Source: Iphione sp. A-MEVVRFRX5
Lineage: Eukaryota
Length of the DNA stretch: 64,000 bases
Direction: 5' to 3'
Assembly (NCBI GenBank): GCA_976226885.1
Contig: OZ320319.1
Span: forward strand, 71,610,001-71,674,000
Part shown: positions 10,420 to 42,639 of the stretch, piece by piece
Position numbering within the stretch: the stretch's first letter is position 1
How the letters are laid out: each line of letters starts with the position of its first letter
The notes under the pieces: generated by a model
What the model was told of the DNA's origin: nothing
The model's database searches: none
Seen by the model: the letters and a program-made list of their open reading frames with translations, nothing else
Translations under genes and position numbers: made by a program

Positions 10420-12363
10420 TTAAAATGAAGAAATATGGGATATCAGAGATGAAGGGATTGAAACACGTATGATATGAGGATGTTGTGAAATGAAATTCTT
10501 AACAACTGCCCTATACTTGGGCGCTGTAGGAAGACGTGAGAGGGCGTCAGCGACGATCATTTTTTCTCCCGGCAGATGAGAGAAAACCAAGGAAACATTG
10601 AATCTGGCAGCTCTATACCAGACTGCTCTCAAAATTCTGGATAAGAAATAATCCTTGGACCTTCCTGTACTAAGGACTGAAATAGTGGCACTATTATCAC
10701 AGATGACTTCGATCCTAGAGTTCTGGTTATGAGGGCCGATGAAGAGATGAATGGCCACAGCAGTATTAAACGCCTCGAGCTGAGAGATGGGCAGATGAGC
10801 TAGGGAGGGGGGGGTGGACTGAGTGTAGTAGTAATTTGAGTTATATGCCCCCATGCCTACGAGGCAGGCGTCACAATATATGACGTCGGTGATTACTGGT
10901 GGAGTGATGAGGCGCACGCCGTTGAAATGTGGGAGGAATACAAGAAACCATCTCAAATCTCTTTTCACTGGATCTGTAAGTGAAACAAATGAGGAGTCGG
11001 GACGTGAAGCCTGTCGTATCTCATGTAGGATGGAGTTGATGAAGTAGCGGGCTGGTGGGGAACACTTCACTATGTGGTTGATTAACCCGACCACGCTCTG
11101 AGCCTTCTTAAGGGGAATGGATGAGAGGAAAATAATGCTTTGTATGGATTGAATGAGGTCTTGGATTTTCTGTTGAAGAATTGACATGGTAAGTGTGTTG
11201 GTGTCGAATGTGACGCCGAGCCAGGTTAGATTTCGTGTAGGGAGGACACACTTGTCGTGTGCGAGTTGTAGACCTAAATTGGAGATAAGAAGCTGTGCAT
11301 AGGAAAAGGCTTTGGAGATTTGTGAGTATGAGGGTGAGATGAAAACATAATCATCTAGATATGCGAATAGGGTAACATGTGGGAAATTACATGAAATATG
11401 TTTGACAATGACGGAGGAGAGTTCTTGAAGCAGGAGAGAGGAGTAGCGAGTTCCAAACGGTAGGGAAAGATCAAGGTAGAAATTACTGTTAAATTCAAAT
11501 GGGAGGAGGGGCCAATCAAGGGGGTCGACAGGAAAGTATCTATATGCACGCTTGAGGTCGAGAGAAGCTAGGTATGGTTTTTGTGAAGAGGTAGAAATGA
11601 TATGAGCAAGATCTAATGGGGATGGGAGGTTGACTTTTAGGGGTATTGAATAATAGTCATTCTTTGGGATGCCAGCATTCACACCTGAATGTGAGAGGTC
11701 GAATATTACTCTCCTCTCGTGGGAATCTTTCTTGGGCCTGGTCATTATAGGATTTAGGACTTGAGGATGGGTGAATGGGTGTTGATCAAACGGGCCCCTG
11801 ATAGCGCCCCATGCGAGCTCAGTACATACATATTTGGTAATGTGGGCCTCGTCCTTGGGATCAGTGGGGTACAACGACACAGGGAGAGGCAGCGTGTCGT
11901 TAGTGTAGCCAAGGGGAAAACCGTAATTCAGAAAATCTATGAATATTGTGCCTTTATGGCCTAATGGCAGTAGTATATCAGACCAATTGCTAATGTTCAG
12001 TTGAGACTGCAGGAGCAGCCTTGCTTCCATAAAATTGGGTAGTCCAGTGGATCTGACCATAGAGTAGGTATCGGGCAGATCAGGTGGGAGGTGGGCTGTA
12101 TGGAGAGGCCAATTGAAAATTCGATGGGCCAACATCTGGTGGTGGGATCTGGAAATGGAATTATTGTCATTAGTTGTAGGGAAGTCTTGGTTGTGGGCCC
12201 AGTCATCGAAGTAATCTGCATCGTGCTGACAGTCGGATGGAATCACCACTCTTGGTTGTCCGTTCGTGCTGGTCGTTGGTCTCTGGGCTGATTCGCTGTC
12301 CAGGGCTTGGGCTGCTGACGATCCTGAAGATTCTGCTGCTGGGCCTTCTTTTTGGACCGACAT
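10420..12363 (-). CDS. Reverse transcriptase/RNase H (DIRS/Ngaro-like), 647 aa, uninterrupted
   Basis: RT motifs LDLKRAYR, LPFG and YLDD (FAYLDDYVF). RNaseH motifs YCDAC, QLEAFN, CDNSAT and HLPGEKMIVADALSR. Confidence 0.9.
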   Translation of the reverse strand: MSVQKEGPAAESSGSSAAQALDSESAQRPTTSTNGQPRVVIPSDCQHDADYFDDWAHNQDFPTTNDNNSISRSHHQMLAHRIFNWPLHTAHLPPDLPDTYSMVRSTGLPNFMEARLLLQSQLNISNWSDILLPLGHKGTIFIDFLNYGFPLGYTNDTLPLPVSLYPTDPKDEAHITKYVCTELAWGAIRGPFDQHPFTHPQVLNPIMTRPKKDSHERRVIFDLSHSGVNAGIPKNDYYSIPLKVNLPSPLDLAHIISTSSQKPYLASLDLKRAYRYFPVDPLDWPLLPFEFNSNFYLDLSLPFGTRYSSLLLQELSSVIVKHISCNFPHVTLFAYLDDYVFISPSYSQISKAFSYAQLLISNLGLQLAHDKCVLPTRNLTWLGVTFDTNTLTMSILQQKIQDLIQSIQSIIFLSSIPLKKAQSVVGLINHIVKCSPPARYFINSILHEIRQASRPDSSFVSLTDPVKRDLRWFLVFLPHFNGVRLITPPVITDVIYCDACLVGMGAYNSNYYYTQSTPPSLAHLPISQLEAFNTAVAIHLFIGPHNQNSRIEVICDNSATISVLSTGRSKDYFLSRILRAVWYRAARFNVSLVFSHLPGEKMIVADALSRLPTAPKYRAVVKNFISQHPHIIRVSIPSSLISHISSF

Positions 12364-13220
12364 TGGTCCAATTTGTGTTCGAGCTGCTTATTGTGGAGAA
12401 GAAAGCAAAACGGACATATATGAGAGAAGGTCACGTCGTTGGCAATGTGAGTTGAGGGCTCAGTACATTTTGCACTGAACCAAGCAGGGCAAGGGACGAC
12501 AGAGTCTTTCTGTAGGGTGGGGCCATCACGATTGGCCCTGGTATGAGCATTGATACACCGTTGTTTAATTGACTCGATACGTTGGGTATCTGACCATGAT
12601 AGCCTGTCGTTCCCCGTAAGGTGCCAAATTTCGACAAGCCATTCCCTGACAGGGGCCCAGCCGCTGGCCTGAACCTCTTCTGCGGTGTCTCTGATATGAG
12701 TGATGAGAGTCATAATGTCTGCAGGATATACAATGGAGGGGTCAAGTAATATACCCATGATAGAGGACACATACTGAGGAAAAGTAAATTTTCTCAAGTC
12801 CGGCTTATCAGTCTCTGACATAACAATGTAAGAGGCGGGATTCGGGCGAGCCATTTTCTTACCTACAGTTTCTAATGCTGCCGGGTACATATGAGTGAAA
12901 ATCTCTTGTATCTTGGAGGCTGCCTCAGTTTTCAAGGCAGCTGGTTGAGGTGGAGGTGACGAATCGTTGTCCTCGTCCTCGTGTACGTCTGAACTTGAAC
13001 CGGCCACAGCAGTCGACTGACCTTCGGCCATTTTGGCCGCTGCAGCACGAGTGGTCACTGTCGTGGTTGAAAATTTCTTGGTCTTTTGGGAACTCTTGGA
13101 CTCCTTGGGCTCCTTGGGGTCCAATTTGTCCAAACGGTCCTCGATGGCTTTCATCTTTTCAAGCATTTTGACCAGAATTTCGCCTTCCTCCTCGGTGACA
13201 CCTGACTTTGGGTCCGGCAT
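12243..13220 (-). CDS. Gag-like ORF1 of the DIRS/Ngaro element, 325 aa from the ATG at 13220
   Basis: Intact ORF overlapping the RT ORF by 121 nt. It contains GWAPVREW...W and a Cys/His cluster (CPAWFSAKCTEPSTH...HICPFC...H....C). The ATG context is GCAACAATG; the ORF track starts at an upstream GTG. Confidence 0.75.
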   Translation of the reverse strand: MPDPKSGVTEEEGEILVKMLEKMKAIEDRLDKLDPKEPKESKSSQKTKKFSTTTVTTRAAAAKMAEGQSTAVAGSSSDVHEDEDNDSSPPPQPAALKTEAASKIQEIFTHMYPAALETVGKKMARPNPASYIVMSETDKPDLRKFTFPQYVSSIMGILLDPSIVYPADIMTLITHIRDTAEEVQASGWAPVREWLVEIWHLTGNDRLSWSDTQRIESIKQRCINAHTRANRDGPTLQKDSVVPCPAWFSAKCTEPSTHIANDVTFSHICPFCFLLHNKQLEHKLDQCRSKKKAQQQNLQDRQQPKPWTANQPRDQRPARTDNQEW

Positions 13221-29821: not shown

Positions 29822-30792
29822 CTTTACTTTTCCTAATCCGTTTTCTTCCGTCTACCGTTACATTTCCTTCATTACTTTCAACTTTCCACAGTCTTTCCCT
29901 CCTTTCTCACCTTCATTTTCCTATACTCTTCATGTTACCTTTCCTTCCCTTCGTATCTATCCCCTCTCTTCCCTATTCTCTCCTTTATCCTATTCTGATC
30001 TTCCTGTTCGCCAACACTCTCTTGCTCATTTTCTTCTCGCCACTGCTGAGGCCTGTTCCTCTAGCACGGATCACCCTTTGACCGCACCTCGTCGCTGTGT
30101 CTCAACGCGCCTCCAGGCATCCCGGATCTAACGCTGAAGAACCAAAAATTCCCAGGGTACCATGTTTTTTTCGTCCCAGAGTAAGCAATCTGTGTACGTA
30201 TCCCTATTGGCACACTTTGAATTTGGATATACAGCCCTGGCTACGCAATACCACTTCCTCATCGCCAATCATCTGTCTGCGGGGTATAGAGCCAATCCTA
30301 CATGTGGACCTTCATCTTGGTGACAACTACCAATTTAAATACATCACGCAGAGTACTGATTCTCATGAGAAGTTAAGTGCATTTTATGGTGCCATCGATA
30401 CAGTCATTGCTCCCGAGAGCTACAGGTTACTTTATTCTTGAGGAAGAGGACTGGCTTTTAGACGTAATCCTTTGATTAGCCCTCCCATTGAGGGTTATCC
30501 CAAATAAATGTACCAGATATTATTTCAATTGAAATTAAATGCTGCATTTTGACGGTTAACTCCTCTTAGCTCTTTTTCTCGTGCTTATACTGCCCATTTT
30601 CTACTGCTCATTATGTTTTATGATCTGCCTTATCCATCTCCTCTATAAAATAATACCGGAGCATGACAGGGGCAGCGCAAGGCCGAATAGAGCCGGTTTA
30701 TTCTTCATACTCGAAGGGCTTCTGTTGGATAACATTACTGGTGTGCAGCTGTTAGCTTCCAATGGGAGACGACCAAAGAATCTCTATTATAT

Positions 30793-31340
30793 TGTAGGGT
30801 AGCGTAAGGAGGGCTAGACGTACTACATGTACTTGAGAAGGGCCCAAGCAGTTTAAGGAGAAGAAAGTAGGGGCCCGAGCATATAGGGGAGGGGCCCGAA
30901 CAACTGTAGTGGGGCCCAACCACTTTTGTACAAGGGCCCAGCTGTTGCACCGAATGCCCCCTACTTTGACTGACAGATGAGACCAGAAAGAGCAATGTTG
31001 TATCAATTTTATTCCATATTTGGATACAGTCACCGGGTCACATGACGTGTATACTTGCTATAAATAAGAGCCCTGTGTGGCAAATAAACCAGTCTGCACT
31101 TGGATTACGTTGTGGCTGTTGTCTCTTCAGGGAATGCTAGGAACAGATACTCACTTGAACTTACCTTAGGGTTAGCCTATTGGAGTAACGTATTGGATTA
31201 ACACATGAGGATTATTAAGCCAGGTAATTAACTACCATAGGAGGATTTACCAAGTGGGAATAACAACACACATACGACACTTGGGGATATTACTTTATTC
31301 CAAGGAGTAACTCAAAGGAGATTTAAATACGCAGATTACA
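30793..31340 (+). repeat. 5' LTR (548 bp)
   Basis: Runs TGTAGGG...ATTACA, with TATAAATA at 31059 and AATAAA at 31083. Matches 42092-42639 except at 3 positions. Confidence 0.98.
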
Positions 31341-31341
31341 C

Positions 31342-31360
31342 TGGTGTCAGAAGTGGGATT
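31342..31360 (+). promoter_or_regulatory. Primer binding site complementary to the tRNA-Leu 3' end
   Basis: TGGTGTCAGAAGTGGGATT is the reverse complement of AATCCCACTTCTGACACCA, the 3' end of eukaryotic tRNA-Leu. It starts 1 nt after the LTR. Confidence 0.9.
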
Positions 31361-31371
31361 CCCCAGACAAG

Positions 31372-32235
31372 ATGGCTACAGCTTATGTCTCTGTGGATGA
31401 TGAAGTGCAGATTCGTGTCACCAGCCCGGCACCTGACACAGAAGAGGAGGAGCACTTTGAGATTGCTCCAGAAGAGCCACTCAAGATCAACACTTTGAAG
31501 CCGGAGCGGTTTGACGGTAAGACTGTTGATTGGGACAGCTGGATCAGTCAGTTTGCGGAGTGGGCAACCGCTTGCAGGTGGGGGGAGGACACAAAATGTT
31601 CTGCATTGACCCTGTCCCTGACTGGGACAGCCCGCATGTACTATGGGGATCTCCCTGCCGAGGAGAAGAGGGACTATGCTAGCAGGGTGGCCGCCCTTGA
31701 GCGAAGATTTGGCAGAAGGAGGGATCGCGTTGTGGCAATGCAGAAGCTATCAGGCATGAGACGTCAGAAAGATGAAGATGTGAGGGACTTGGCCGATCGG
31801 GTTAGGAGGCTGGTACGTACAGCCTACCCCGACGTGACGGGGGAAACTAGGGAATTGGCAGCTGTCGCGGCATTCCAGAGGGCCCTAGCAGACTCCCTCC
31901 ACTTGAAGTGCCTCGAAGCCAAGTGTACCACGCTAGATAACGCCGTCCAGGTGGTGGAGACTCAGGAACGTTTTCGGGCAAAGGCAATTAACACCGTACA
32001 GCAGGCTCCCATTCAGACCCCTATCGCCTCAACCCCAGCTGGGTGGAAAAAGGAGATGGAGGAGCTCATAGCTCAGGAAATCCGGAAACTGAGGGAAGAA
32101 GCTAAGACCCCAGAGGAGGGAAAGCCAAGGAAGCCCCGGTTCACTGGATGCTATCAGTGTGGACAACATGGCCACTTTAAGCGGGATTGTCCCCAGCTAC
32201 CCGCATCGGGAAACGCCAACCAGCCGGCTCAGTAG
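31372..32235 (+). CDS. gag: Gag (287 aa) with capsid-like region and CCHC knuckle
   Basis: KPERFDG...W...W...L..SLTG.A capsid-like motif and CYQCGQHGHFKRDC zinc knuckle. Confidence 0.95.
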   Translation: MATAYVSVDDEVQIRVTSPAPDTEEEEHFEIAPEEPLKINTLKPERFDGKTVDWDSWISQFAEWATACRWGEDTKCSALTLSLTGTARMYYGDLPAEEKRDYASRVAALERRFGRRRDRVVAMQKLSGMRRQKDEDVRDLADRVRRLVRTAYPDVTGETRELAAVAAFQRALADSLHLKCLEAKCTTLDNAVQVVETQERFRAKAINTVQQAPIQTPIASTPAGWKKEMEELIAQEIRKLREEAKTPEEGKPRKPRFTGCYQCGQHGHFKRDCPQLPASGNANQPAQ

Positions 32236-32933
32236 GCCAGGAGGGCGCGGCTGATCCAGTCCCCATGGGGTGTATAATGGAACAAGGCCAGGGGCCACAC
32301 TTACAGGTAAGCGTGAGGGGTGGCAACTATATGTTTCTGGTGGATACAGGGGCCGAAGTTTCCATTGTTAACCCTGAGGTGGTCCCTGGCCTAGAAGGTG
32401 ACAGGGGGGAGATCCGGATTACTGGGGCGGGTGGGCATGTAATCCCCACACTAGGAAAAGAGGTCCTAGAGGTAGAAGTAGCAGGTAAACAGTTTTCCCA
32501 TCCTTTCTTGATAGCTCAAATTGGGGAAGAGGGTATCTTGGGGAATGATTTCTTAAACCACCATCAGGCAGTCATAGACCTGGCTCATGGGAGGGTGTGT
32601 TTTGATAGTAGGTCCGGGGGGCAGCGATGCCCTGAGAAGCCGACTGCCCTGCGTGTGGCCCATGATGTGTCTTTGTCCCCAGGCGAGGGGACGGCTGTCC
32701 CCCTGATTAACCCTGGGGGTGCATCCTTCCTGATAGAAGGGGTGGATGAGAAGCAAATGGGGAGGGGGATCTTCGGGATTAGGAGCATTGTTAGAGCCAC
32801 CCTCCCCCTTTGGAATTTGGGAGATCGGGATGTGATGCTGACGCAGGGGACCCTATTAGCCATGGGGCACCCAACCTGTTGCTCAGAAGTCACGAAAGGG
32901 GCCCCTGAAAACAGGGTCCGGATGATTCAGTAG
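32208..32933 (+). CDS. pol: Aspartic protease region of pol, in the -1 frame relative to gag
   Basis: FLVDTGAEVSIV active site and GILGNDFL motif. A G GGA AAC slippery site lies at 32208-32214. The ORF ends at TAG 32931-32933. Confidence 0.92.
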   Translation, partial: GKRQPAGSVGQEGAADPVPMGCIMEQGQGPHLQVSVRGGNYMFLVDTGAEVSIVNPEVVPGLEGDRGEIRITGAGGHVIPTLGKEVLEVEVAGKQFSHPFLIAQIGEEGILGNDFLNHHQAVIDLAHGRVCFDSRSGGQRCPEKPTALRVAHDVSLSPGEGTAVPLINPGGASFLIEGVDEKQMGRGIFGIRSIVRATLPLWNLGDRDVMLTQGTLLAMGHPTCCSEVTKGAPENRVRMIQ

Positions 32934-35858
32934 GTGTCTGGGGCAGTGTTTGAGGGGTTATTGGCCCAGACAGCAGGACGACTCCAAGAGGGAGAACAGG
33001 TAGCCCTTGCCAAGGTCCTAAGGAAGCATAAAGCTGTGTTCGCTCGGTCGAAGGGGGACCTGGGGCAGACCGACCTGGTACAACATAGGATCTACCTACT
33101 AGACCCCCACCCTATTAAGCAGCCCCCTAGGCGGCTCCCCATAGCCCGGCGGCGAGAGGAGCGTGAGCTGGTGGCGGAGATGAGGGCGCTGGGGGTGATC
33201 CGGGAGAGCAGTAGCCCTTGGTCCAGTCCGGTGGTCATGGTCCGAAAGAAAGACGGCACCACCCGTTTCTGCGTTGATTATCGGAAGTTGAACCAGCAGA
33301 CGAAGGTCGACGCCTACCCCCTGCCACGGATAGATGACTCACTGAGCACGTTGGCAGGCGCCCGGTACTTCTGTTCCTTGGATTTGGCATCAGGCTACTG
33401 GCAGGTCCGGATGCACCCCGAGGACCGCGAAAAAACGGCTTTCTCTACATCCGTAGGACTGTACGAGTTCACCGTAATGCCGTTTGGGTTGGTGAATGCC
33501 CCGGCCACGTTCGAGCGGTTGATGGACACAGTATTACGGGGTCTTGCCTGGGAGCAGTGCCTCGTGTACCTGGACGATATCTTAGTGTTTGGGCGAGATT
33601 TCCCAGAGACACTAGAAAGGCTGGACCGCGTGCTAAGTCGAATTGCCCAGGCTGGGTTGAAGCTCAAACCAACCAAGTGCCAGTTGTTCTTGGAAGAGGT
33701 CGGTTTCCTCGGACACCTTGTCTCGCGAAAGGGGGTGGCGACTGACCCTGCTAAGACCAAATGCATCGTCGACTGGCCGACCCCACGATGCACTACTGAT
33801 GTTCGCGCCTTCTTGGGGATCTGTTCCTATTACCGGCGTCATGTGCCCCGGTTTGCCAATGTAGCCGCACCCCTAAACCGTCTTACCAGTGCAAGGGTGA
33901 GGTTTACCTGGGGGCCAGAAGAAGAGTCTGCATTCCAAGAACTGAAACGGGCACTGAGCACCAGTCCCATCCTCGGCTATCCCCAACCTAATGGGAGGTA
34001 CTACTTGGATACGGACGCCAGTAACGTGGGGCTGGGCGCTGTCTTGGCGCAGGAACAAGAGGGCCAGGAAGTAGTGCTAGCCTACTATAGCCGGAGCCTC
34101 AGCGAGGCAGAACGACGCTACTGCGTCATGCGACGGGAGCTCCTTGCCGTTGTGGCAGCTCTGAAGCACTTCCACTTTTACCTCTATGGGCAGGATGTAA
34201 CCGTGCGCACTGATAACGGGGCTGTCAGCTGGCTCAGCCGGATAAAGGACCCAGAGGGACAGCTAGCCCGTTGGTTGGAAAGGATTGGCCAATATCGATT
34301 GCAGCTCGTTCATCGTGCAGGGCGACTGAATTCCAACGCTGACGCTCTGTCTCGTCGAGTTTGTCGGCAGTGCCAACAACCCCACCTTGAACCTGAGGAA
34401 GAGGAGGTGATTCCAGTAAGGGTGGTGACCCGCAGCCAGACTACCCCCGCTCCGGGTCGGGAATTACGTCGGGACCAGCTACAAGACGAGACTGTAGGGC
34501 CAATCCTGCGACTGAGAGAAGAGACCACGGATCAACCTTCATGGGAAGCAGTGTCTGCCCTGCCAGCCGCGGCGAAGGCTTTATGGAGACAGTGGGACCG
34601 GCTGACGGTCAACGACGGGCTATTACAGCGGCGCTGGTATGGGCTGGGGAGCGATCCCACCCGGTTGCAAGTAGTACTCCCTGCAATACGACAGGAAGGG
34701 GCCATCAAGGAAGTGCATGCTGGACGAACCGGAGGACACTTGGCCACCGATCATACCACCTATTTGGTGTCGCTTGCTTACTATTGGCCAGGGATGCGAA
34801 AGGATGTTGAAGCCTTCTGCCGTCGCTGTCACTGTGCCCTCCTGAATATCAGTCCTCAGAAACCGCAAACTGCATTGAAGACTTACCTGCCCGGTGAGCC
34901 AATGGAACGCTGGTCAATGGACGTGGCGGGGCCCCTACCAGAAACGAAGAGGGGGAATCGCTATGTCCTTATGGTGGGTGACCATTTCACCAAATGGATA
35001 GAGGCCTTCGCCATGCCCGACCAGAAGGCCAGCCGGGTAGCCGCTCTGCTAGCTGAAGAAGTCATTGCACGATACGGGTGCTTCTTAGAGATCCATAGTG
35101 ATCAAGGCACCAATTTCTGCAGTGAAGTCCTGGTGGCGCTGTGCCAGTATTTGGATATAAAGAAGACCCGGACTACGCCGCGCCACCCCCAGAGCGACGG
35201 TTTCATTGAGAGGAGCTTCCGTACTATGAGCCGAATGATAAAAGCCCATTGCCATGAAGTGCGGGATGATTGGGACGAGGCTTTACCGTTTTTGATGATG
35301 GCCTATCGGGCCTCGCCGCAAGCTAGTACTGGGTATACCCCGAACTTCCTGATGTTTGGGCGGGAGATCATCCTCCCAGTGCATGCGTGGGACGGACTTC
35401 CACGACACACTATGGAGGAGCGTCCCCTCCCGGAGCAGGTGGCTGATGTCGGGCGTCGGATGCAGGCCGCGTACAAGGAGGTAAGACGCCATTTGCAGCG
35501 GGCCGCGAGGACCCAGGCCCGGGCGTACGACCGCCGAGTGCAGGGGCACCCATTGCAGGATGGGGACGCGGTTTGGTTGCACGAGGCTCAGCCCCCAAAG
35601 GGGCGTAGTCCAAAGACACACTTCCCTTGGACAGGGCCCTGGGCAGTAGTCAGGCGGCTCGATGACGAGCGTTTGGTGATACAGCGGACGCAAAAGGCGA
35701 AGCTGAAAGTGGTCCATAGGAACCGGCTACGACGTTACCAGGGGGACGATCTTCCCCGGTGGATCCTGACACTAAGGAAGAAGATGGTAGCGTCGCAGGA
35801 GAATGGAGAGGTCAAAAAGAAGACTTCGGGCGTGGGGGGAACCAATCCCCCGGAGTAG
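32934..35858 (+). CDS. pol: RT-RNaseH-integrase region of pol, same frame as the protease, after a single TAG
   Basis: RFCVDYRKLN, LDLASGYWQ and YLDD (RT); DTDAS, RELLA, TDN and NADALSR (RH); H..GH..YYWPG..CRRC, MDVAGP, HSDQG, DGFIER and WTGPW (IN). Confidence 0.97.
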   Translation: MSGAVFEGLLAQTAGRLQEGEQVALAKVLRKHKAVFARSKGDLGQTDLVQHRIYLLDPHPIKQPPRRLPIARRREERELVAEMRALGVIRESSSPWSSPVVMVRKKDGTTRFCVDYRKLNQQTKVDAYPLPRIDDSLSTLAGARYFCSLDLASGYWQVRMHPEDREKTAFSTSVGLYEFTVMPFGLVNAPATFERLMDTVLRGLAWEQCLVYLDDILVFGRDFPETLERLDRVLSRIAQAGLKLKPTKCQLFLEEVGFLGHLVSRKGVATDPAKTKCIVDWPTPRCTTDVRAFLGICSYYRRHVPRFANVAAPLNRLTSARVRFTWGPEEESAFQELKRALSTSPILGYPQPNGRYYLDTDASNVGLGAVLAQEQEGQEVVLAYYSRSLSEAERRYCVMRRELLAVVAALKHFHFYLYGQDVTVRTDNGAVSWLSRIKDPEGQLARWLERIGQYRLQLVHRAGRLNSNADALSRRVCRQCQQPHLEPEEEEVIPVRVVTRSQTTPAPGRELRRDQLQDETVGPILRLREETTDQPSWEAVSALPAAAKALWRQWDRLTVNDGLLQRRWYGLGSDPTRLQVVLPAIRQEGAIKEVHAGRTGGHLATDHTTYLVSLAYYWPGMRKDVEAFCRRCHCALLNISPQKPQTALKTYLPGEPMERWSMDVAGPLPETKRGNRYVLMVGDHFTKWIEAFAMPDQKASRVAALLAEEVIARYGCFLEIHSDQGTNFCSEVLVALCQYLDIKKTRTTPRHPQSDGFIERSFRTMSRMIKAHCHEVRDDWDEALPFLMMAYRASPQASTGYTPNFLMFGREIILPVHAWDGLPRHTMEERPLPEQVADVGRRMQAAYKEVRRHLQRAARTQARAYDRRVQGHPLQDGDAVWLHEAQPPKGRSPKTHFPWTGPWAVVRRLDDERLVIQRTQKAKLKVVHRNRLRRYQGDDLPRWILTLRKKMVASQENGEVKKKTSGVGGTNPPE

Positions 35859-36871
35859 CCGGAGCCAGGACGAATTGGGGGTATGAGCACCCAGGTGGCA
35901 CTCAAAAAGTTCATGGAAGGTGGTGGAACACCTGGAGCGTGTAGCGCTCAAAAGTTCCAGTAGGACATGACGGACGTCCTGAGGATCATCGGCATCCAAA
36001 ACGAGTCCGTGTAGGGGTAGACTCCCTGTAAGCGTCCAAAAAGTTCTGGGAGGTGAAAGCGAGGAGAGCCTGGAGCTGCTAGAAACTTAGAATGCTCCTC
36101 GGAAGGAGAGAGTAGACATCCTGGGGGCCATGCGGGCCCTGAAAAGGTCTAGGAGGAGGACGGACATCCTGGGACGCTTAAAAAGGTCTGGAGTGGGAGG
36201 ATGAACATCCCAGAGTGCACAAAAGAGCTTATGGAATGTGCAGGGCTATCGGAGAGGGCCAGGAGTTAGACATCGGAAGACTGGAGAACGATCTCCAGAG
36301 GGGTCGATAGGTAGGCCCCTGAGAGGAGCAACCGAGAGGGTGACTAGGACGAGAACAGACTGTTCCACAAAGAGTTAGGTTCCCCCCCCTTTTACCACCA
36401 AGGGGTGGGAGAGAAACCGGCCTCCACACCGTCGCCGCACGGAACGCTATCCAAACTGCTGGTCATCCCCGCTGAGGGAACGCTTGGGCCAGGACGTAGC
36501 CCATGGCTTCCGCAAGACAAGAGATCCATCGTGGGCCTGGTGAGGAAGAGTAGCACTACGTATGGATAGCAACGGGCTGGCCAAACCACGGTCTGAACCA
36601 AGCTGCCGTCCCTTTCCTCTAGGAGAAGGCGGAGACCAAGATGCTGTCCACTTCCTCTGGGGGCACCTGCTGCTCGGCTGCTAGGATAAGGTAAAAGATA
36701 ATCATCCCATCTAACCGACGGCCCCTGACATTAGGAAGTAAATTCCCCCCCTTTTTCCCTCTGAAAGGACCGACAAAGAGAATCAAAGGTTAGGAAATTT
36801 ATTCATCAGCAACAGTAAAAATATACACTTGAGTATATACAATGGCTACATACAACATGCAAGCCCCAGGG

Positions 36872-38082
36872 TTAGTCATCCTCCACCAGGATGGGGTGGC
36901 ACGCCAAATCCCCTGCCCGCACCTCCAGCAACCAGTTCACGATCCCAGTGGGCAGGTCATCAACCAAGGCCCGGCCAAAGAGGGGGCCTGTCTCGGGGGA
37001 CCCCACTGGTGTTGGGCGCGATGGGGTGTCGCAGGAAGACAATGAGTCTGGTGACGGGGAACGCGGGGAGGAGGACTCGGAGGAGCCGTCCGAGCTGAGG
37101 ACGGGAAACCAGTCGCAATCGGAAGAGGCTTGTCGGGGTGGTGTCCGCGTTGAGAACAACCCAAAAGATTCGTCAGAAGAGGAGTCGTAGTGAGGACTCC
37201 AGGGATCGAGCATCTCTGTTGTCCATGACCCCGGAGACCAGGAACGCTCGCTGGGCGAGGAAACGAAGGGCCGGGCCGGTGGAGACGACGGGATGTATGC
37301 AGGGGAGCGGTCGTCCAGCTGGCTCAGGTAGGCCTCTACGGAGCGGGGGCTCACCTCGGGAGATACCGCCTCCGCCCGGACCGAGTAACAAGGGGAGGTG
37401 GGAGGAGCCAGCGGCGTCATCGGAATGGCCGAACATGGGGAAGATGGCTCGATGGGGTGCACACTGATGGTAACCCGGTGGTAGGGCCCAAAGAGCTGTA
37501 CTTGGCCCGGAGCAGGAATGAACAGAGGGTCGGTGAGGACTGGGTAGAGTCCGAACACCCGGATCATTGGTCCGGGCGTCCCTATGTCCAGGGACCTGTA
37601 GTAAGTATCCGGCGGGAAACTCCTGGGAGGAAGAAAGAAGAAAGAAGGTTAGAAAAAAAAGAAAAAAAAAAAAAAAAAAAAAAAAAAGAGTTCTCTTACC
37701 TGGTGAGCAACCAACTGACAACTGGCAACAGTAGGAAAACCAGCAGGTCACAACTGGTAATCGTGGACGGCTCCAAAGGAAACGGAGACTCTACCTATCA
37801 TCCGCTGGAGGGTACCCTGCTAACTCCCGGGCCAAGGCCTCAATGTCAGGGGACTGACACGGCTGGGGCAGAGATAGGGATGCTCTGGAATATCAGGAGC
37901 AAGGAAAGTGTAAGCAACCATTCTTCCCTCACCCCCCTCCTGTTTGGAAATAGCAAGGATACACAGCAAAAAGTATGCAGCACTAAGAAATCTTACCGGT
38001 CGGACCACACAGGATCCCTGGACTCCCAAGGGAGAAAACATCCATGCTGGGTCATGCCTGTGAGATAGGGAGGTAATTCCAT
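36872..38082 (-). CDS. Predicted spliced antisense accessory gene, 308 aa (exons 38082-37997, 37884-37795, 37622-36872), Ser/Pro-rich, function unknown
   Basis: TATAAATA at 38158-38151 and a GCCATGG start. GT-AG introns 37996-37885 and 37794-37623 keep the frame (86+90+751 = 927 nt). AATAAA at 36803-36798. Confidence 0.6.
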
Positions 38083-38150
38083 GGCTGGAAGGCCCAAGTG
38101 TACGCCTAAGTGTCTTCGCGACGACTGGCGCAGCAGACCGCGCGGTGCGA

Positions 38151-38900
38151 TATTTATAGACGGGTACAACTGTCGCTCGGGCCCCGTGAGAAACACAGAC
38201 ACCGCGCGGAGGGCCCGACCGGTACCTGAACGCTAGCTCGCTCGGGCCCCGTGTAGAAAACGAAAACGAGCAAAACGGGCCCGATCGATAAGCAGACTGG
38301 GAGAAAAAGGTTTTTCGTGGCAGAAAAATATTCGTAAAATTACCTACAGCGAAAAAGGGCCCGACCAAGTACGAGGTTACGCTCGGGCCCCCAAACCGGA
38401 AGAGGCCGAAAGGTAAACATCCGCCGAGCCTCGTTTTGATCTCCAGAAGCAGCAGACGAGTTTTCGTGTCAATAAAAACTGCAAAATTTAAGGAACTAAA
38501 GAAGAATCAACCCGAAGAGAAGGAGGAAATGGATCAAGACCCATCCTAGCATCATCAAGGACGTCCCTTTGAAGAGGGGGGAGGAAGCAGAAGCCAGCTT
38601 CGTGGGAGAAAAGACCGACCGGCGTTGGGGCCCGACAAGCAGAAGACCTGAGGGCCCGAGCGGAGGAGTACGCTGATCTGTGTGAGTGTAGCGAATCTTC
38701 CCTTCTGTCGGGCCCTGCCTCTGTTGTTTTTTCGTGGAGTACGCTGATCTGTAGCGAATATCCCCTTCTGTCGGGCCCTGCCTCTGTTGTTTTCGTGATG
38801 CAGCACGGGCCCGAGTGATACCGCGATTGTTGTACCTTTGGGGGGCCCGAACACCGAGCATTCGTTGTGATCCTATAGGGCCCGAGCAGCAGGGCCCGAG
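38151..38900. promoter_or_regulatory. Candidate internal bidirectional promoter with 14 GGGCCCGA motifs
   Basis: Non-coding interval between two divergent ORFs. All 14 GGGCCC hexamers in it extend to GGGCCCGA or TCGGGCCC. Confidence 0.6.
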
Positions 38901-38964
38901 CCCCAAGCCTTGTCAAGACCTCCAGTAAGTAGTTGTCTTCCCCGTACTACCTGGCCATCCCATC

Positions 38965-40932
38965 ATGCCGCGTCCCATCATTGGCATGCCAAAGGTAAAG
39001 AGGGTGTTGAAGAAGGATGACCCCATCCCAGAGGGGACTAAGTTGTGTCAACTCTGCACTGTAAGGCGGCCCTTTTTTCCCGGGGATTCCATGGAACGCC
39101 ACCTGGATGCAGTCCACCGGGGGAAAAGGAGCCGGCGCATGTACTGCCTGTACTGCCCAGGTGTGATAGGGGATGTGCATTCCTGGGCCGCGCATGTGCG
39201 GCGCTACCACCCGTGGGCTGCTCAAATGGGCCTGGTAGAGCCGAGGTATCGGGATCTCTACGACGTGACACCCAAGGCGGACCCGCACGTACCTGATGAC
39301 GAGCTGACCCCGATCATCTTGAGAGCTCGCACTCTGAGGGCCGACGGATGGGCCCTGGGGGAGGCAGAAGCGGAGGACATGTTGGCCAACGCCCCGCGTC
39401 GCTCCTCGCCCCCACGTGTAGAGCGGGAAACCCGAGCCTCGTCAAGGCGGCGGAAGGCCTCGGCCGGCACCCCGAACGAGAGGAGTAAGCCTGCCAAAAG
39501 AGGGAGGAGTACAGCAGTCGTCCCACCCACTACACCTCCACTGGGTCAGGCGGAGGGTCACGGGGATTCCCCGGCAAGGGTGCGACAGCCTAGCCAGGAA
39601 GTGGACGTCCCGTATGCCGCCGATCGCCCGCCCAGTATGGCTACCCCCACCTTGTCCAAGGCCCCCTCTACAACCTCTGCCGCTACCCCCCGGGGGAAGA
39701 GTAGAGCCGCAAAGAGAAGGAAAGGGGCGTCGGTCGCCCAGCCTACTGCACCTCCCCCGGGTGACGGGGAAGGCCGTGAGAACCCCCCAGCAAGGACGGG
39801 CCAGCCCTGCCAGGGGGCGGTCGCCCCTTACCCCGCCGGTCATCTACCCAGTGCGGCCACCCCTGCCTTGCCTGGAGCCCCCCCTTCAGCTGAAGGGACA
39901 CCAGCTACTGACGACCCAGGTGATGCCGCCCCCACCTGGAGGCTACCCGCAACCTGGGATCAGGGGGAGGTTGATGCAGTGGTCTCGCAACTGCAGCGAG
40001 CAGTAGAACCTCCCCTGGTAGGCCTCCTGTCGGCCGGCGACACGACCCAGACAGGTAGGGCCCCAGCTACGCGGGACCCCCTCTTATGCCAAGGGGTCGC
40101 TACTCCCTGCCCAACGTCGGGAGAGTGGAGCGGGAGGCCTTCTGGCACGTACCAACCATCTACCCCGTCTCGGGACACTGTTCCGGGGTGGGGAGAGCTG
40201 GAGATGGGCCCCCTCGGCCCAGGATTTGTGCTCTCAGGGACTGAGGAAACCCTACCGGGTCCCTCTACGTCCGTGCAGGGGCGACTACCCCGTATGGCTC
40301 AGCGCCTCTTATCGCCTGACCGGGCTGGCCCTGCCGCTGCCCGGGCGATGGACATCCTCGATGGGCTAGCCCCACCCTACTTCACAGTCGCCCGCGCCTC
40401 TACCCCCCCTGCACCTGTCCGCCTGCCCTCCACTATGCCGTGGCCACCTCGGGGTTGGGAGGCATGGAGCCCCACCCATCGGCTAATGGCCTGTGTCTCT
40501 GTTGCGTGGGTATTATTTCTGGCAGAGGGAGACGTGCAGGCCCCCAAGTCCTTGCTGACACCGTTGCAGCGGCACCCCTGGCTATTACTCCCCGGGGTCA
40601 CCATCCCCACTGCGGCCGACTGGGGCAGCTTGGAGGCCACCATTGGGCGACACAATCGGGCGGTGGATGCAGCGGAGGGATTACTAAAAGGTTTGCAGGC
40701 CCAAGTGGGGGATCAACAGAAGCCACCGGTGGAGGCCCGACAATGGAGGCAGGAGGCCAGCCTAGCGAGGTCGGCACGCGAACAGCGTAACCCAACCCTG
40801 GCTGACATCTGTGCGTTTGCTCCGCCCTGGCAAAGTCGGCTTGACTTGCAGGACATTTGGCCAGAGGCAGCACTACCGACCCACTCCGGCTCCCAGGCAG
40901 AGTACTCCCCCTTAGCATCGCGCCAACAGTAG
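38965..40932 (+). CDS. Accessory ORF, 655 aa, with two N-terminal C2H2-like zinc fingers, basic patches and a Pro-rich middle
   Basis: C-x2-C-x14-H-x4-H (CQLC...HLDAVH) and C-x2-C-x12-H-x4-H (CLYC...HVRRYH). The ORF is uninterrupted and lies inside the LTR pair. No signal peptide is evident. Confidence 0.8.
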   Translation: MPRPIIGMPKVKRVLKKDDPIPEGTKLCQLCTVRRPFFPGDSMERHLDAVHRGKRSRRMYCLYCPGVIGDVHSWAAHVRRYHPWAAQMGLVEPRYRDLYDVTPKADPHVPDDELTPIILRARTLRADGWALGEAEAEDMLANAPRRSSPPRVERETRASSRRRKASAGTPNERSKPAKRGRSTAVVPPTTPPLGQAEGHGDSPARVRQPSQEVDVPYAADRPPSMATPTLSKAPSTTSAATPRGKSRAAKRRKGASVAQPTAPPPGDGEGRENPPARTGQPCQGAVAPYPAGHLPSAATPALPGAPPSAEGTPATDDPGDAAPTWRLPATWDQGEVDAVVSQLQRAVEPPLVGLLSAGDTTQTGRAPATRDPLLCQGVATPCPTSGEWSGRPSGTYQPSTPSRDTVPGWGELEMGPLGPGFVLSGTEETLPGPSTSVQGRLPRMAQRLLSPDRAGPAAARAMDILDGLAPPYFTVARASTPPAPVRLPSTMPWPPRGWEAWSPTHRLMACVSVAWVLFLAEGDVQAPKSLLTPLQRHPWLLLPGVTIPTAADWGSLEATIGRHNRAVDAAEGLLKGLQAQVGDQQKPPVEARQWRQEASLARSAREQRNPTLADICAFAPPWQSRLDLQDIWPEAALPTHSGSQAEYSPLASRQQ

Positions 40933-42078
40933 GTGGAGATTGTAGCCGCTACCTTAGAGACCTTTCATGGGGAAGGGACCGACACAGGGACATAGGGGTG
41001 GGGTATATTTTGTGTAATCTAACGGTAACCCCGACTGTTCTGCTGGAAGGCTAAAAGAAAGAGGACTGTACCTCCCAAAAAGAGAATTTTTGATGGATGC
41101 TGTGCTCAGGTGTTACCAGATAATGAGGTGTTGTCGGACTCTGTGGGGGGGATTTGATGTTGTTTATCCAAGAACAGAGGGAACTGGCGGATAAGGCATA
41201 CCAGGTGTTAGGTGATTACTATAAGTCGTTCTGTGATCAAGGTGTTGATTATATGTAACCACAAAGGATACTGATGACGTTTCTGTAGGGGGGGGGCAAA
41301 ATGGATATGCGCCATACTGTGATTTGAGAAAAGAAAACTACAGAAGAGGACTGTACCTCCCAAAAAGAGAATCCGTGTAAGTGAAGTGATTAGATGTTGC
41401 CGGCCTATGTGCCGCTGGTGGTGTTGACAGTACTTACCCAAGCGAGTGGTGGCAAAGCAGTGTGATACCAACATGACGGGTGTTGCCAAGCGATCAGGAG
41501 TGATTTGATTATGTACCAGTGACGACGTTAAGGATGTTAATAGTATTTACCCAAGATTATGTGCCATTGATGATGTTAAGAGTGTTGGCAGTATTTACCC
41601 AAGTGAAAAGTGGCAAAGCGGTGTGATAGCGACATGACGGGCGTTCCCAAGTGATCAGGTGTGGCTAGATTATGTGACTGTGATAGACGTTACAATTTCA
41701 CCACCCCGTTACGATCTGATCAGCTGTTGTTATCAAATATGCCACTACTACTGTTATAGCTTATCATATTACTGTGAACAATCAATTCTCGTCTTGTTGT
41801 GATTTTCTCGGGTTGTTACTCAGACAGGCATGATGGCCTTGTGTTTACCACTGTTTTGTTAAAAATTTGGTCTGTTGATGCTATCAAGTGTGATATTGTT
41901 AGAGGGGCCTATTTTCAAGTTGCTATCAAGTATGTCGTTACGATTTTCTCAGGGTGTCCCCCAGATGTTGTTTTCCTAGCTGTGATAGGTGTGGCCGCCT
42001 CGCGTTCGCCGTTGTTCTGTTATGATTTGATCCGTTAGTGCTATCAAGTGTGACATTGTTAGAGGGGCCTATTTTTTT

Positions 42079-42091
42079 AAGCAGGGGAGAG
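42079..42091 (+). promoter_or_regulatory. Polypurine tract
   Basis: AAGCAGGGGAGAG immediately precedes the 3' LTR. Confidence 0.85.
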
Positions 42092-42639
42092 TGTAGGGTA
42101 GCGTAAGGAGGGCTAGACGTACTACATGTACTTGAGAAGGGCCCAAGCAGTTTAAGGAGAAGAAAGTAGGGGCCCGAGCATATAGGGGAGGGGCCCGAAC
42201 AACTGTAGTGGGGCCCAACCACTTTTGTACAAGGGCCCAGCTGTTGCACCGAATGCCCCCTACTTTGACTGACAGATGAGACCAGAAAGAGCAATGTTGT
42301 ATCAATTTTATTCCATATTTGGATACAGTCACCGGGTCACATGACGTGTATACTTGCTATAAATAAGAGCCCTGTGTGGCAAATAAACCAGTCTGCACTT
42401 GGATTACGTTGTGGCTGTTGTCTCTTCAGGGAATGCTAGGAACACATACCCACTTGAACTTACCTTAGGGTTAGCCTATTGGAGTAACGTATTGGATTAA
42501 CACATGAGGATTATTAAGCCAGGCAATTAACTACCATAGGAGGATTTACCAAGTGGGAATAACAACACACATACGACACTTGGGGATATTACTTTATTCC
42601 AAGGAGTAACTCAAAGGAGATTTAAATACGCAGATTACA
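42092..42639 (+). repeat. 3' LTR (548 bp)
   Basis: Copy of 30793-31340, followed by the ATAT TSD. Confidence 0.98.

Follow-up and report, generated by a model that had tools for sequence, protein, structure and literature searches.

A stretch of 64,000 nucleotides from Iphione sp. A-MEVVRFRX5 (contig OZ320319.1 of assembly GCA_976226885.1, positions 71,610,001 to 71,674,000; in the following called the window) carries a young Ty3/Gypsy retrotransposon at positions 30793-42639 with two accessory genes between integrase and the polypurine tract (PPT): a predicted spliced gene on the minus strand and, divergent to it, an open reading frame (ORF2, in the following the finger gene) for a protein with two C2H2-type zinc fingers. 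The spacer between the two genes contains an array of a short motif that is also present in the unique 3' (U3) region of the element's own long terminal repeats (LTRs). Related families have the same layout with other motifs, and the motif changes together with a few residues at the helix of the second finger. On balance, we consider it probable that the finger protein binds the motif of its own family in the array and in the LTR and activates its own element. The comparative evidence, namely family motifs common to the spacer and the own U3 and a motif that tracks the finger-2 helix, supports the reading of an initial annotation of the window, which had proposed an element-encoded regulatory circuit.

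Within the window, GGGCCCGA occurs 18 times: 14 copies lie in the spacer, two in each LTR and none elsewhere, compared with a mean of 0.86 and a maximum of 4 in shuffled sequence. Each LTR has five GGGCCC cores, two of them part of GGGCCCGA, and all five are upstream of that LTR's TATA box, consistent with the cluster of motif cores that the initial annotation had noted in the LTR enhancer region. The spacer had also been described as 720 bp long with 14 sites: the number of sites is correct, but 720 bp is the span of the array and the start codons of the two genes are 882 bp apart. Motif positions vary less than the rest of the spacer (13% versus 27% in four deep copies of the window family), and the reduced variation is also seen in a column test with 25 copies of that family (P=0.006). 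An interpretation of the array as a tandem repeat was rejected for the window copy. The spacer is predicted to be an internal promoter and may be bidirectional; only its antisense side has a TATA box.

The word GGGCCCGA belongs to the window family only, and its non-palindromic site is atypical among the families. De novo word counting distinguishes eleven motif classes in the lineage: the first words found were GCCCGA (window family), CCCCGA/CCCCAA, CCACGA, CCACGG, CCGCCA, CCGTAG and CCRCAG, and ACSCAA, TCRCAA, ACRCSA and CCCAAG were added by a set of elements picked by their integrase. Most sites are 14-bp pseudo-palindromes that consist of two 6-bp halves around two free bases (6+2+6). The length of the gap in the palindromes was also examined, but nested arms confounded this test and we make no use of it. 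In 84 of 90 copies, the element's own U3 contains the top 6-mer of the spacer more often than the U3 regions of other classes do (mean 5.4 versus 0.5); the 90 copies are non-independent, and 18 loci were left out because they had stops, lacked a finger or had a 3' LTR that could not be detected. Four further classes also share words between spacer and U3, and in the class with the helix residues DTQS the sharing is at a degenerate level only, as the spacer prefers ACACGA and the LTR ACGCGA. The arrays did not arise by block copying from the LTR: among 31 elements, the longest exact word common to spacer and U3 is at most 19 bp long (median 15). Three decayed relatives (L117, L118 and L120) have GGGACCC(G/A)A, one base longer than the window word, at apparently matching LTR positions. 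The length of the LTRs ranges from about 540 to 1085 bp across elements, and in some (L192, L189-L191 and L021) the U3 has grown by tandem duplication of 50-120-bp units with one or two sites each.

An AlphaFold model of ORF2 residues 1-150 (pLDDT 85.6) has helices at residues 41-51 and 71-81 and places D70, V71, H72 and S73 at positions -1 to +3 of finger 2, with D70 just ahead of the helix. Across families, the residues at these positions pair with the motif as follows: DVHS with GCCCGA and CCCCGA, DVHA with CCCCAA, DEQS and DDQT with CCACGA, EDQT with CCACGG, HEQS with CCGCCA, DEHY with CCRCAG, DEYY with CCGTAG, DMYA with ACSCAA, EMYS with TCRCAA, DTQS with ACACGA and DEYA with CCCAAG. When 88 variable columns are ranked by how well they explain the motif class, D70, H72 and V71 take ranks 1 to 3. 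On a tree made without the helix, D70 and H72 alone of 219 columns from both conserved domains change solely on branches with a motif change, the average share of changes on such branches being 0.23. Residues 70-73 rank first of 134 four-residue segments in a set of 38 sequences (partial r 0.37; best non-overlapping segment 0.23). Loci that had been held out showed known helices with their known words in five cases, and a new helix with a new word. Two rules held in the interpretable loci: Asp or Glu at position -1 goes with G or A at position 5 and His with C, and the same residues go with the same motif, except for DVHS with its two site types.

Several observations weigh against a finger protein that binds the motif and activates its own element. 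K10, which lies outside the fingers, matches H72 in tracking the motif in the 38-sequence set, and the half-site labels in that test were partly set by hand after the helices had been seen. The number of independent motif changes, about ten, is a small sample and the deep nodes of the tree are weak. DVHS pairs with both GCCCGA and CCCCGA, and the helix/motif pairs in general map poorly on the canonical C2H2 recognition code. A rule set in advance for helix position +2 (His goes with C at half-site position 3) was refuted by the held-out loci, as it failed in 13 DEHY-type loci of 20. Six of the 90 copies fail the U3 test, the sense strand of the spacer has no TATA box, and the fold matches of the finger domain are C2H2-rich and weak (best Foldseek E 0.64, Z 3.3). 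Finally, the physical linkage of the finger gene to the spacer and the 3' LTR is in itself enough to expect joint inheritance.

This last objection is weakened, although not removed, by a pattern of cassette exchange. There are pairs of elements with 93-98% identity from integrase to mid-spacer that are only about 65% identical over the finger gene and recover in the LTR. In eight pairs with the same backbone, silent divergence (pS) is 0.02-0.12 in integrase versus 0.71-0.85 in the finger domain, and this combination of low and saturated values indicates that old finger-gene cassettes sit on shared backbones. Helix positions -1 and +2 are retained in seven of these eight pairs, and the pair that changed at position -1 also changed its motif. 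The CCGCCA families are 96-98% identical to the window element in pol, yet have another motif, another finger gene and another U3.

The divergent ORF of 655 amino acids with two C2H2-like fingers was recovered as initially described: its fingers follow the patterns C-x2-C-x14-H-x4-H and C-x2-C-x12-H-x4-H, and the eight ligands are the same in every one of 31 aligned relatives. A profile search with the fingers in 1.84 billion proteins returned 67 matches centred on the finger pair (best E 1.5e-11), and seven of eight matches that were checked are ordinary C2H2 proteins. The Pfam C2H2 model matches the window finger protein at E 0.03-0.09, under the curated cut-off, and no Pfam family is above cut-off for either accessory protein of the window; in the protein atlas, the N-terminal domain of ORF2 falls into unnamed or C2H2 clusters only. 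The finger pair shares ligand spacing, predicted helices and profile matches with classical C2H2 proteins such as CTCF, Tramtrack and ZFAT, but the loop of finger 1 is 14 residues long, a basic linker takes the place of TGEKP, and the flanking helices and the C-terminal domain (C-domain) have no match. No match at E<=0.001 was obtained with the whole ORF2 against 8000 candidate proteins or with an alignment of the C-domain against 7997 longer proteins, searches that can miss relatives; a search of a viral fold library also gave none at E<=0.001, and the protein searches made found no full-length relative of the finger protein. The model of the C-domain (pLDDT 44) is too low for use. We also considered an env-bearing element of the errantivirus type. 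This is out: the maximum 19-residue hydropathy of the finger-gene proteins is 0.82-1.48 (7/7 proteins), which means that the third ORF has no transmembrane segment, and there is no conserved env-like splice path, as neither a conserved leader donor nor a conserved acceptor for an env-like message was found across elements.

The antisense gene has, as the initial annotation had it, a spliced structure between integrase and PPT, with a TATA box, phased exons, a poly(T) acceptor tract and an AATAAA signal; splicing between coding exons of compatible phase is predicted from conserved signals and phase. Elements of different motif classes share the first exon with its phase-2 donor, the TATA box and the poly(T) tract, and the phase of exon 1 is compatible in 15 of 29 scorable elements in a strict scan, in three more in a relaxed scan and in a further three read by eye. 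The protein atlas had no usable match to the antisense exon, and no DNA-binding domain was recognised in the antisense protein. The antisense orientation may be explained by the genomic RNA, which would not be cut by introns or a poly(A) signal of the opposite strand. Nearly all families have a second splice donor at a distance of 5-44 nt above a poly(T) run, which is 15-56 nt long and reads as a poly(A) run in the genomic RNA. A coding exon with its end at this donor was not found.

The layout is the property of a whole Ty3/Gypsy lineage of this genome and not of one copy. In the assembly of 1.18 Gb, spacer and finger region have 26 near-full-length matches with 76-100% identity, and a search with the finger domain gave 1995 first-look candidates, of which 150 were scored. 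The order of gag, antisense gene, finger domain and C-domain is the same in all 41 elements that were chosen via the finger gene, also at 78-82% identity in pol. The set picked by integrase (20 elements, 67-74% to the window) served as an unbiased check: the antisense gene is present in all 20 and the finger gene in 19. Comparison with seven diverged siblings gave dN/dS values of 0.05-0.20 in the finger domain, 0.03-0.17 in the C-domain, 0.35-0.60 in the low-complexity middle of ORF2, 0.16-0.34 in the antisense exon and 0.08-0.17 in pol; the changes in the three closest copies are too few for a judgement. Both accessory genes are under purifying selection. The initial annotation had named a lack of conservation of accessory ORFs and motifs among family copies as evidence against its reading; instead, both genes and the array are conserved. 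The two genes belong to the additional ORFs of LTR retrotransposons (aORF-3S / aORF-3R).

Some copies have lost most of pol and keep the finger gene and the motif arrays (L041, L053, L075, L121, L122, L128, L129, L133, L134, L154 and L162). A part of them has identical LTRs or many near-identical siblings and therefore appears to have spread in trans. In six pol-less copies no antisense gene was detected, while finger gene and motif are kept. Close pairs of pol-less copies have pN/pS values of 0.25-0.76, resting on few changes.

Binding of the motif by the finger protein is highly probable in our view, because the motif co-varies with the helix residues, and if the protein binds, there is a good chance that it activates rather than represses, because the sites lie above TATA boxes and the U3 arrays have expanded. 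The spacer would then be an internal promoter, TATA-driven towards the antisense gene and TATA-less towards the finger gene. Basal finger protein would bind the dense spacer array and raise its own level, and would then act on the U3 sites above the LTR TATA box, in a positive loop like that of foamy-virus Tas. The 6+2+6 sites of most families suggest two copies of the protein per site. The antisense protein might be a co-regulated partner or a brake, a guess by analogy with Bet of foamy viruses and HBZ of human T-cell leukaemia virus type 1 (HTLV-1). Each family would thereby own a private activator-operator pair, and cassettes with the finger gene would move from one backbone to another mainly where helix and motif remain compatible. 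In its widest form, the proposal would be a complete circuit in the style of complex retroviruses that evolved independently of them: a private C2H2 activator with cognate operators in the LTR and in the array at a bidirectional internal promoter, a counter-regulator encoded by the antisense gene, no fewer than eleven coexisting specificities, and swappable cassettes that act as compatibility types and insulate families transcriptionally. To this complete version we give slightly less than an even chance.

The evidence for binding is blind to sign, and the finger protein could also bind the motif as a repressor that serves as a brake on copy number or timing at LTR and internal promoter. The sites are close to both TATA boxes, and the retention of the gene in pol-less copies agrees with self-restraint no less than with self-activation. 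The private motif-helix pairs have diversified, however, and the U3 arrays have expanded in tandem, as would suit selection for more expression, and the copies are young and numerous; repression is thus unlikely in our estimate. Much the same holds for a mainly VANC-like anti-silencing function, in which the bound finger protein would strip or block host methylation and heterochromatin on its own family; it overlaps with activation of the own element and differs from it in the downstream step. Dense non-coding motif arrays and an architecture of conserved domains around a variable middle recall VANC, as far as the available part of that paper goes (PMC5735166). In pol, singleton transitions are 2.2 times as frequent at CpG as at the remaining C/G sites, and the ratio of observed to expected CpG is 1.0 in the spacer versus 0.6 in the flanks. 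But the words of several classes have no CpG (CCACAG, CCCCAA, ACCCAA), which speaks against a pure anti-methylation role, the sites are found at promoters only and not along the element, and the window array is not a tandem repeat.

The motifs could also be sites of host transcription factors, each family being tuned to a different factor, with a finger gene that merely hitch-hikes. Linkage would account for the joint inheritance, and GGGGAACCCC presumably resembles a Rel/NF-kB site and TGTGGT a Runx site. We regard host factors as improbable: the eleven classes are a one-step series in one 6+2+6 frame, unlike jumps between unrelated factors, the motif is tracked by the helix and not by the rest of the protein, and the helix residues persist across cassettes that are saturated at silent sites. 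RNA binding is known for C2H2 fingers, the genomic RNA contains both arrays, and the conserved poly(A) run of 15-56 nt is nearby; the palindromes might act in RNA packaging, dimerisation or export, with the finger protein as a Rev-like RNA adaptor. This is very improbable, given that the sites cluster upstream of TATA boxes in both orientations, that a 2-nt centre cannot close a hairpin loop and that the window site is not a full palindrome. That the antisense protein and not the finger protein reads the motif would be in line with the tree of antisense proteins, which also groups motif classes (7 changes versus 6), but it has no recognised DNA-binding domain, near-identical antisense proteins occur with different motifs (L033/L123), and the six pol-less copies in which the gene was not detected retain finger gene and motif: we consider it extremely improbable.

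Activation of the own element by the finger protein would have precedents, which are compared here on the basis of the available parts of the cited sources. Foamy-virus Tas/Bel1 is expressed from an internal promoter 3' of pol, together with Bet, and binds response elements there and in the LTR (PMC13220597). The same word in internal promoter region and LTR is the likeness to the window element, at the level of sequence. The differences are a Ty3/Gypsy carrier without env, C2H2 fingers, a divergent antisense second gene and arrays that differ between co-resident families; moreover, binding is proven for Tas, whereas here it is deduced. Pfam and database searches with the window accessory proteins gave no match that would indicate homology to Tas, and none to a VANC-related protein.

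VANC is a transposon protein that has been proposed to co-evolve with dense family-specific motif arrays (PMC5735166). With VANDAL/VANC and with Spm TnpA, the Gypsy lineage shares an element-encoded protein, dense non-coding family-specific arrays, conserved domains around a variable middle and tandem expansion of sites, here in some U3 regions (PMC5735166; bioRxiv 10.64898/2026.08.24.746577). In contrast, these are plant DNA transposons, of the Mutator type in the case of VANDAL, with unrelated binding domains and with demethylation as a proven function; the carrier here is an LTR retrotransposon, and most of the spacer arrays are dispersed sites rather than tandem repeats. Extra sense or antisense ORFs in the env position of LTR retrotransposons are known, with their function described as open in the available text (PMC7264820; PMC9289625). 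The likeness is a conserved sense or antisense ORF in this position, in Grande with its own promoter; the review, in its available part, describes neither a divergent pair nor a C2H2 protein nor a motif in common with the LTR, and no sequence similarity was found between those extra ORFs and the window accessory genes. HTLV-1 also combines a sense regulator (Tax) with a spliced antisense gene (HBZ) in one retroelement, but there the 3' LTR provides the promoter of HBZ and Tax works via host CREB, whereas the antisense TATA box of the window element is internal (PMC10186651). A 2026 preprint on regulators encoded by transposons contains neither 'retrotransposon' nor 'LTR' in its main text, as available.

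The literature searched (Repbase, Dfam and most subscription papers lay outside it) describes no Gypsy element in which two divergent accessory genes go together with a motif tracked by the finger. We see here a known regulatory logic in a new carrier with new proteins; the layout is real and strongly patterned. If the proposal is true, Gypsy elements, too, have evolved control by a DNA-binding protein of their own, as is known for foamy viruses and plant DNA transposons. The lineage would then document joint change in a zinc finger and its site under natural conditions, and would also be a source of small orthogonal finger-operator pairs. The genome offers about a dozen natural protein-motif pairs, which makes the idea of extra ORFs as regulators directly testable.

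The features of the window element are listed in Table 1. It has the LTRs, primer-binding site, PPT and target duplication of a Ty3/Gypsy element; the two LTRs have the same length and ends and are 99.45% identical. The order of gag followed by protease, reverse transcriptase (RT), RNase H (RH) and integrase was confirmed. The stop in the pol frame is present in the window copy, and eight of 18 elements counted have none. Database relatives of RT and RH reach up to 65% identity, and the named relatives of RT are from animals.

Table 1. Features of the Ty3/Gypsy element (positions refer to the window)
Feature	Position	Strand	Remarks
5' LTR	30793..31340	+	548 bp, TG..CA, 4-bp target duplication ATAT outside
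5' LTR U3 motif cluster	30840..30942	+	five GGGCCC cores, two of them GGGCCCGA; upstream of LTR TATA box near 31059
Primer-binding site	31342..31359	+	12 bases identical to the tRNA-Leu primer-binding site described for Steamer
gag	31372..32235	+	CCHC knuckle; slippery word GGGAAAC close to its end
Protease-RT-RNase H-integrase frame	32181..35858	+	single in-frame stop between protease and RT in window copy
AATAAA poly(A) signal, antisense gene	36798..36803	-	
Antisense last exon	36872..37622	-	249 codons; ~60 aa at the N-terminus and ~40 aa at the C-terminus conserved, with an acidic, Ser/Pro-rich middle; matches no known family
Conserved second splice donor (37699), poly(T) tract (37653-37687), acceptor	37623..37699	-	
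Probable 90-nt phase-2 exon	37795..37884	-	ends in the GYPP..DR word that closes exon 1 in other families
Antisense first coding exon	37997..38082	-	ATG 76 nt below TATA; phase-2 donor
TATA box, antisense gene	38153..38158	-	
Array of 14 GGGCCCGA sites	38177..38899	both	723 bp; predicted internal promoter
Finger gene ORF2	38965..40932	+	655 aa; two fingers in the N-terminal domain, then a low-complexity middle and a conserved C-terminal domain
Two C2H2-type fingers, basic linker	39046..39210	+	C28-H51 and C61-H82
Finger-2 helix positions -1 to +3	39172..39183	+	D70 V71 H72 S73; tracks motif across families
ORF2 conserved C-terminal domain	40396..40878	+	Trp/Pro-rich; matches no known family
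PPT	42079..42091	+	
3' LTR	42092..42639	+	U3 motif cluster 42139-42241, same as in 5' LTR

The stretch 35859-36797 (~940 bp), which separates pol from the poly(A) signal of the antisense gene, contains C-runs and short repeats. In the long 3' untranslated stretch, a word of ~27 bp is found twice (41061-41087 and about 41347-41373), and nine of 31 representatives have a similar word. Target duplications (30789-30792 in the window; LTR flanks of L021-L099) appear to be mostly ATAT, GTAT, GTAC or ATAC, which suggests a target-sequence preference. At L047/L048, one element sits within the integrase region of another Gypsy element. Elsewhere in the window, positions 10420-13220 of the minus strand have two overlapping ORFs, one of them with an RT domain, and look like a separate non-LTR retroelement.

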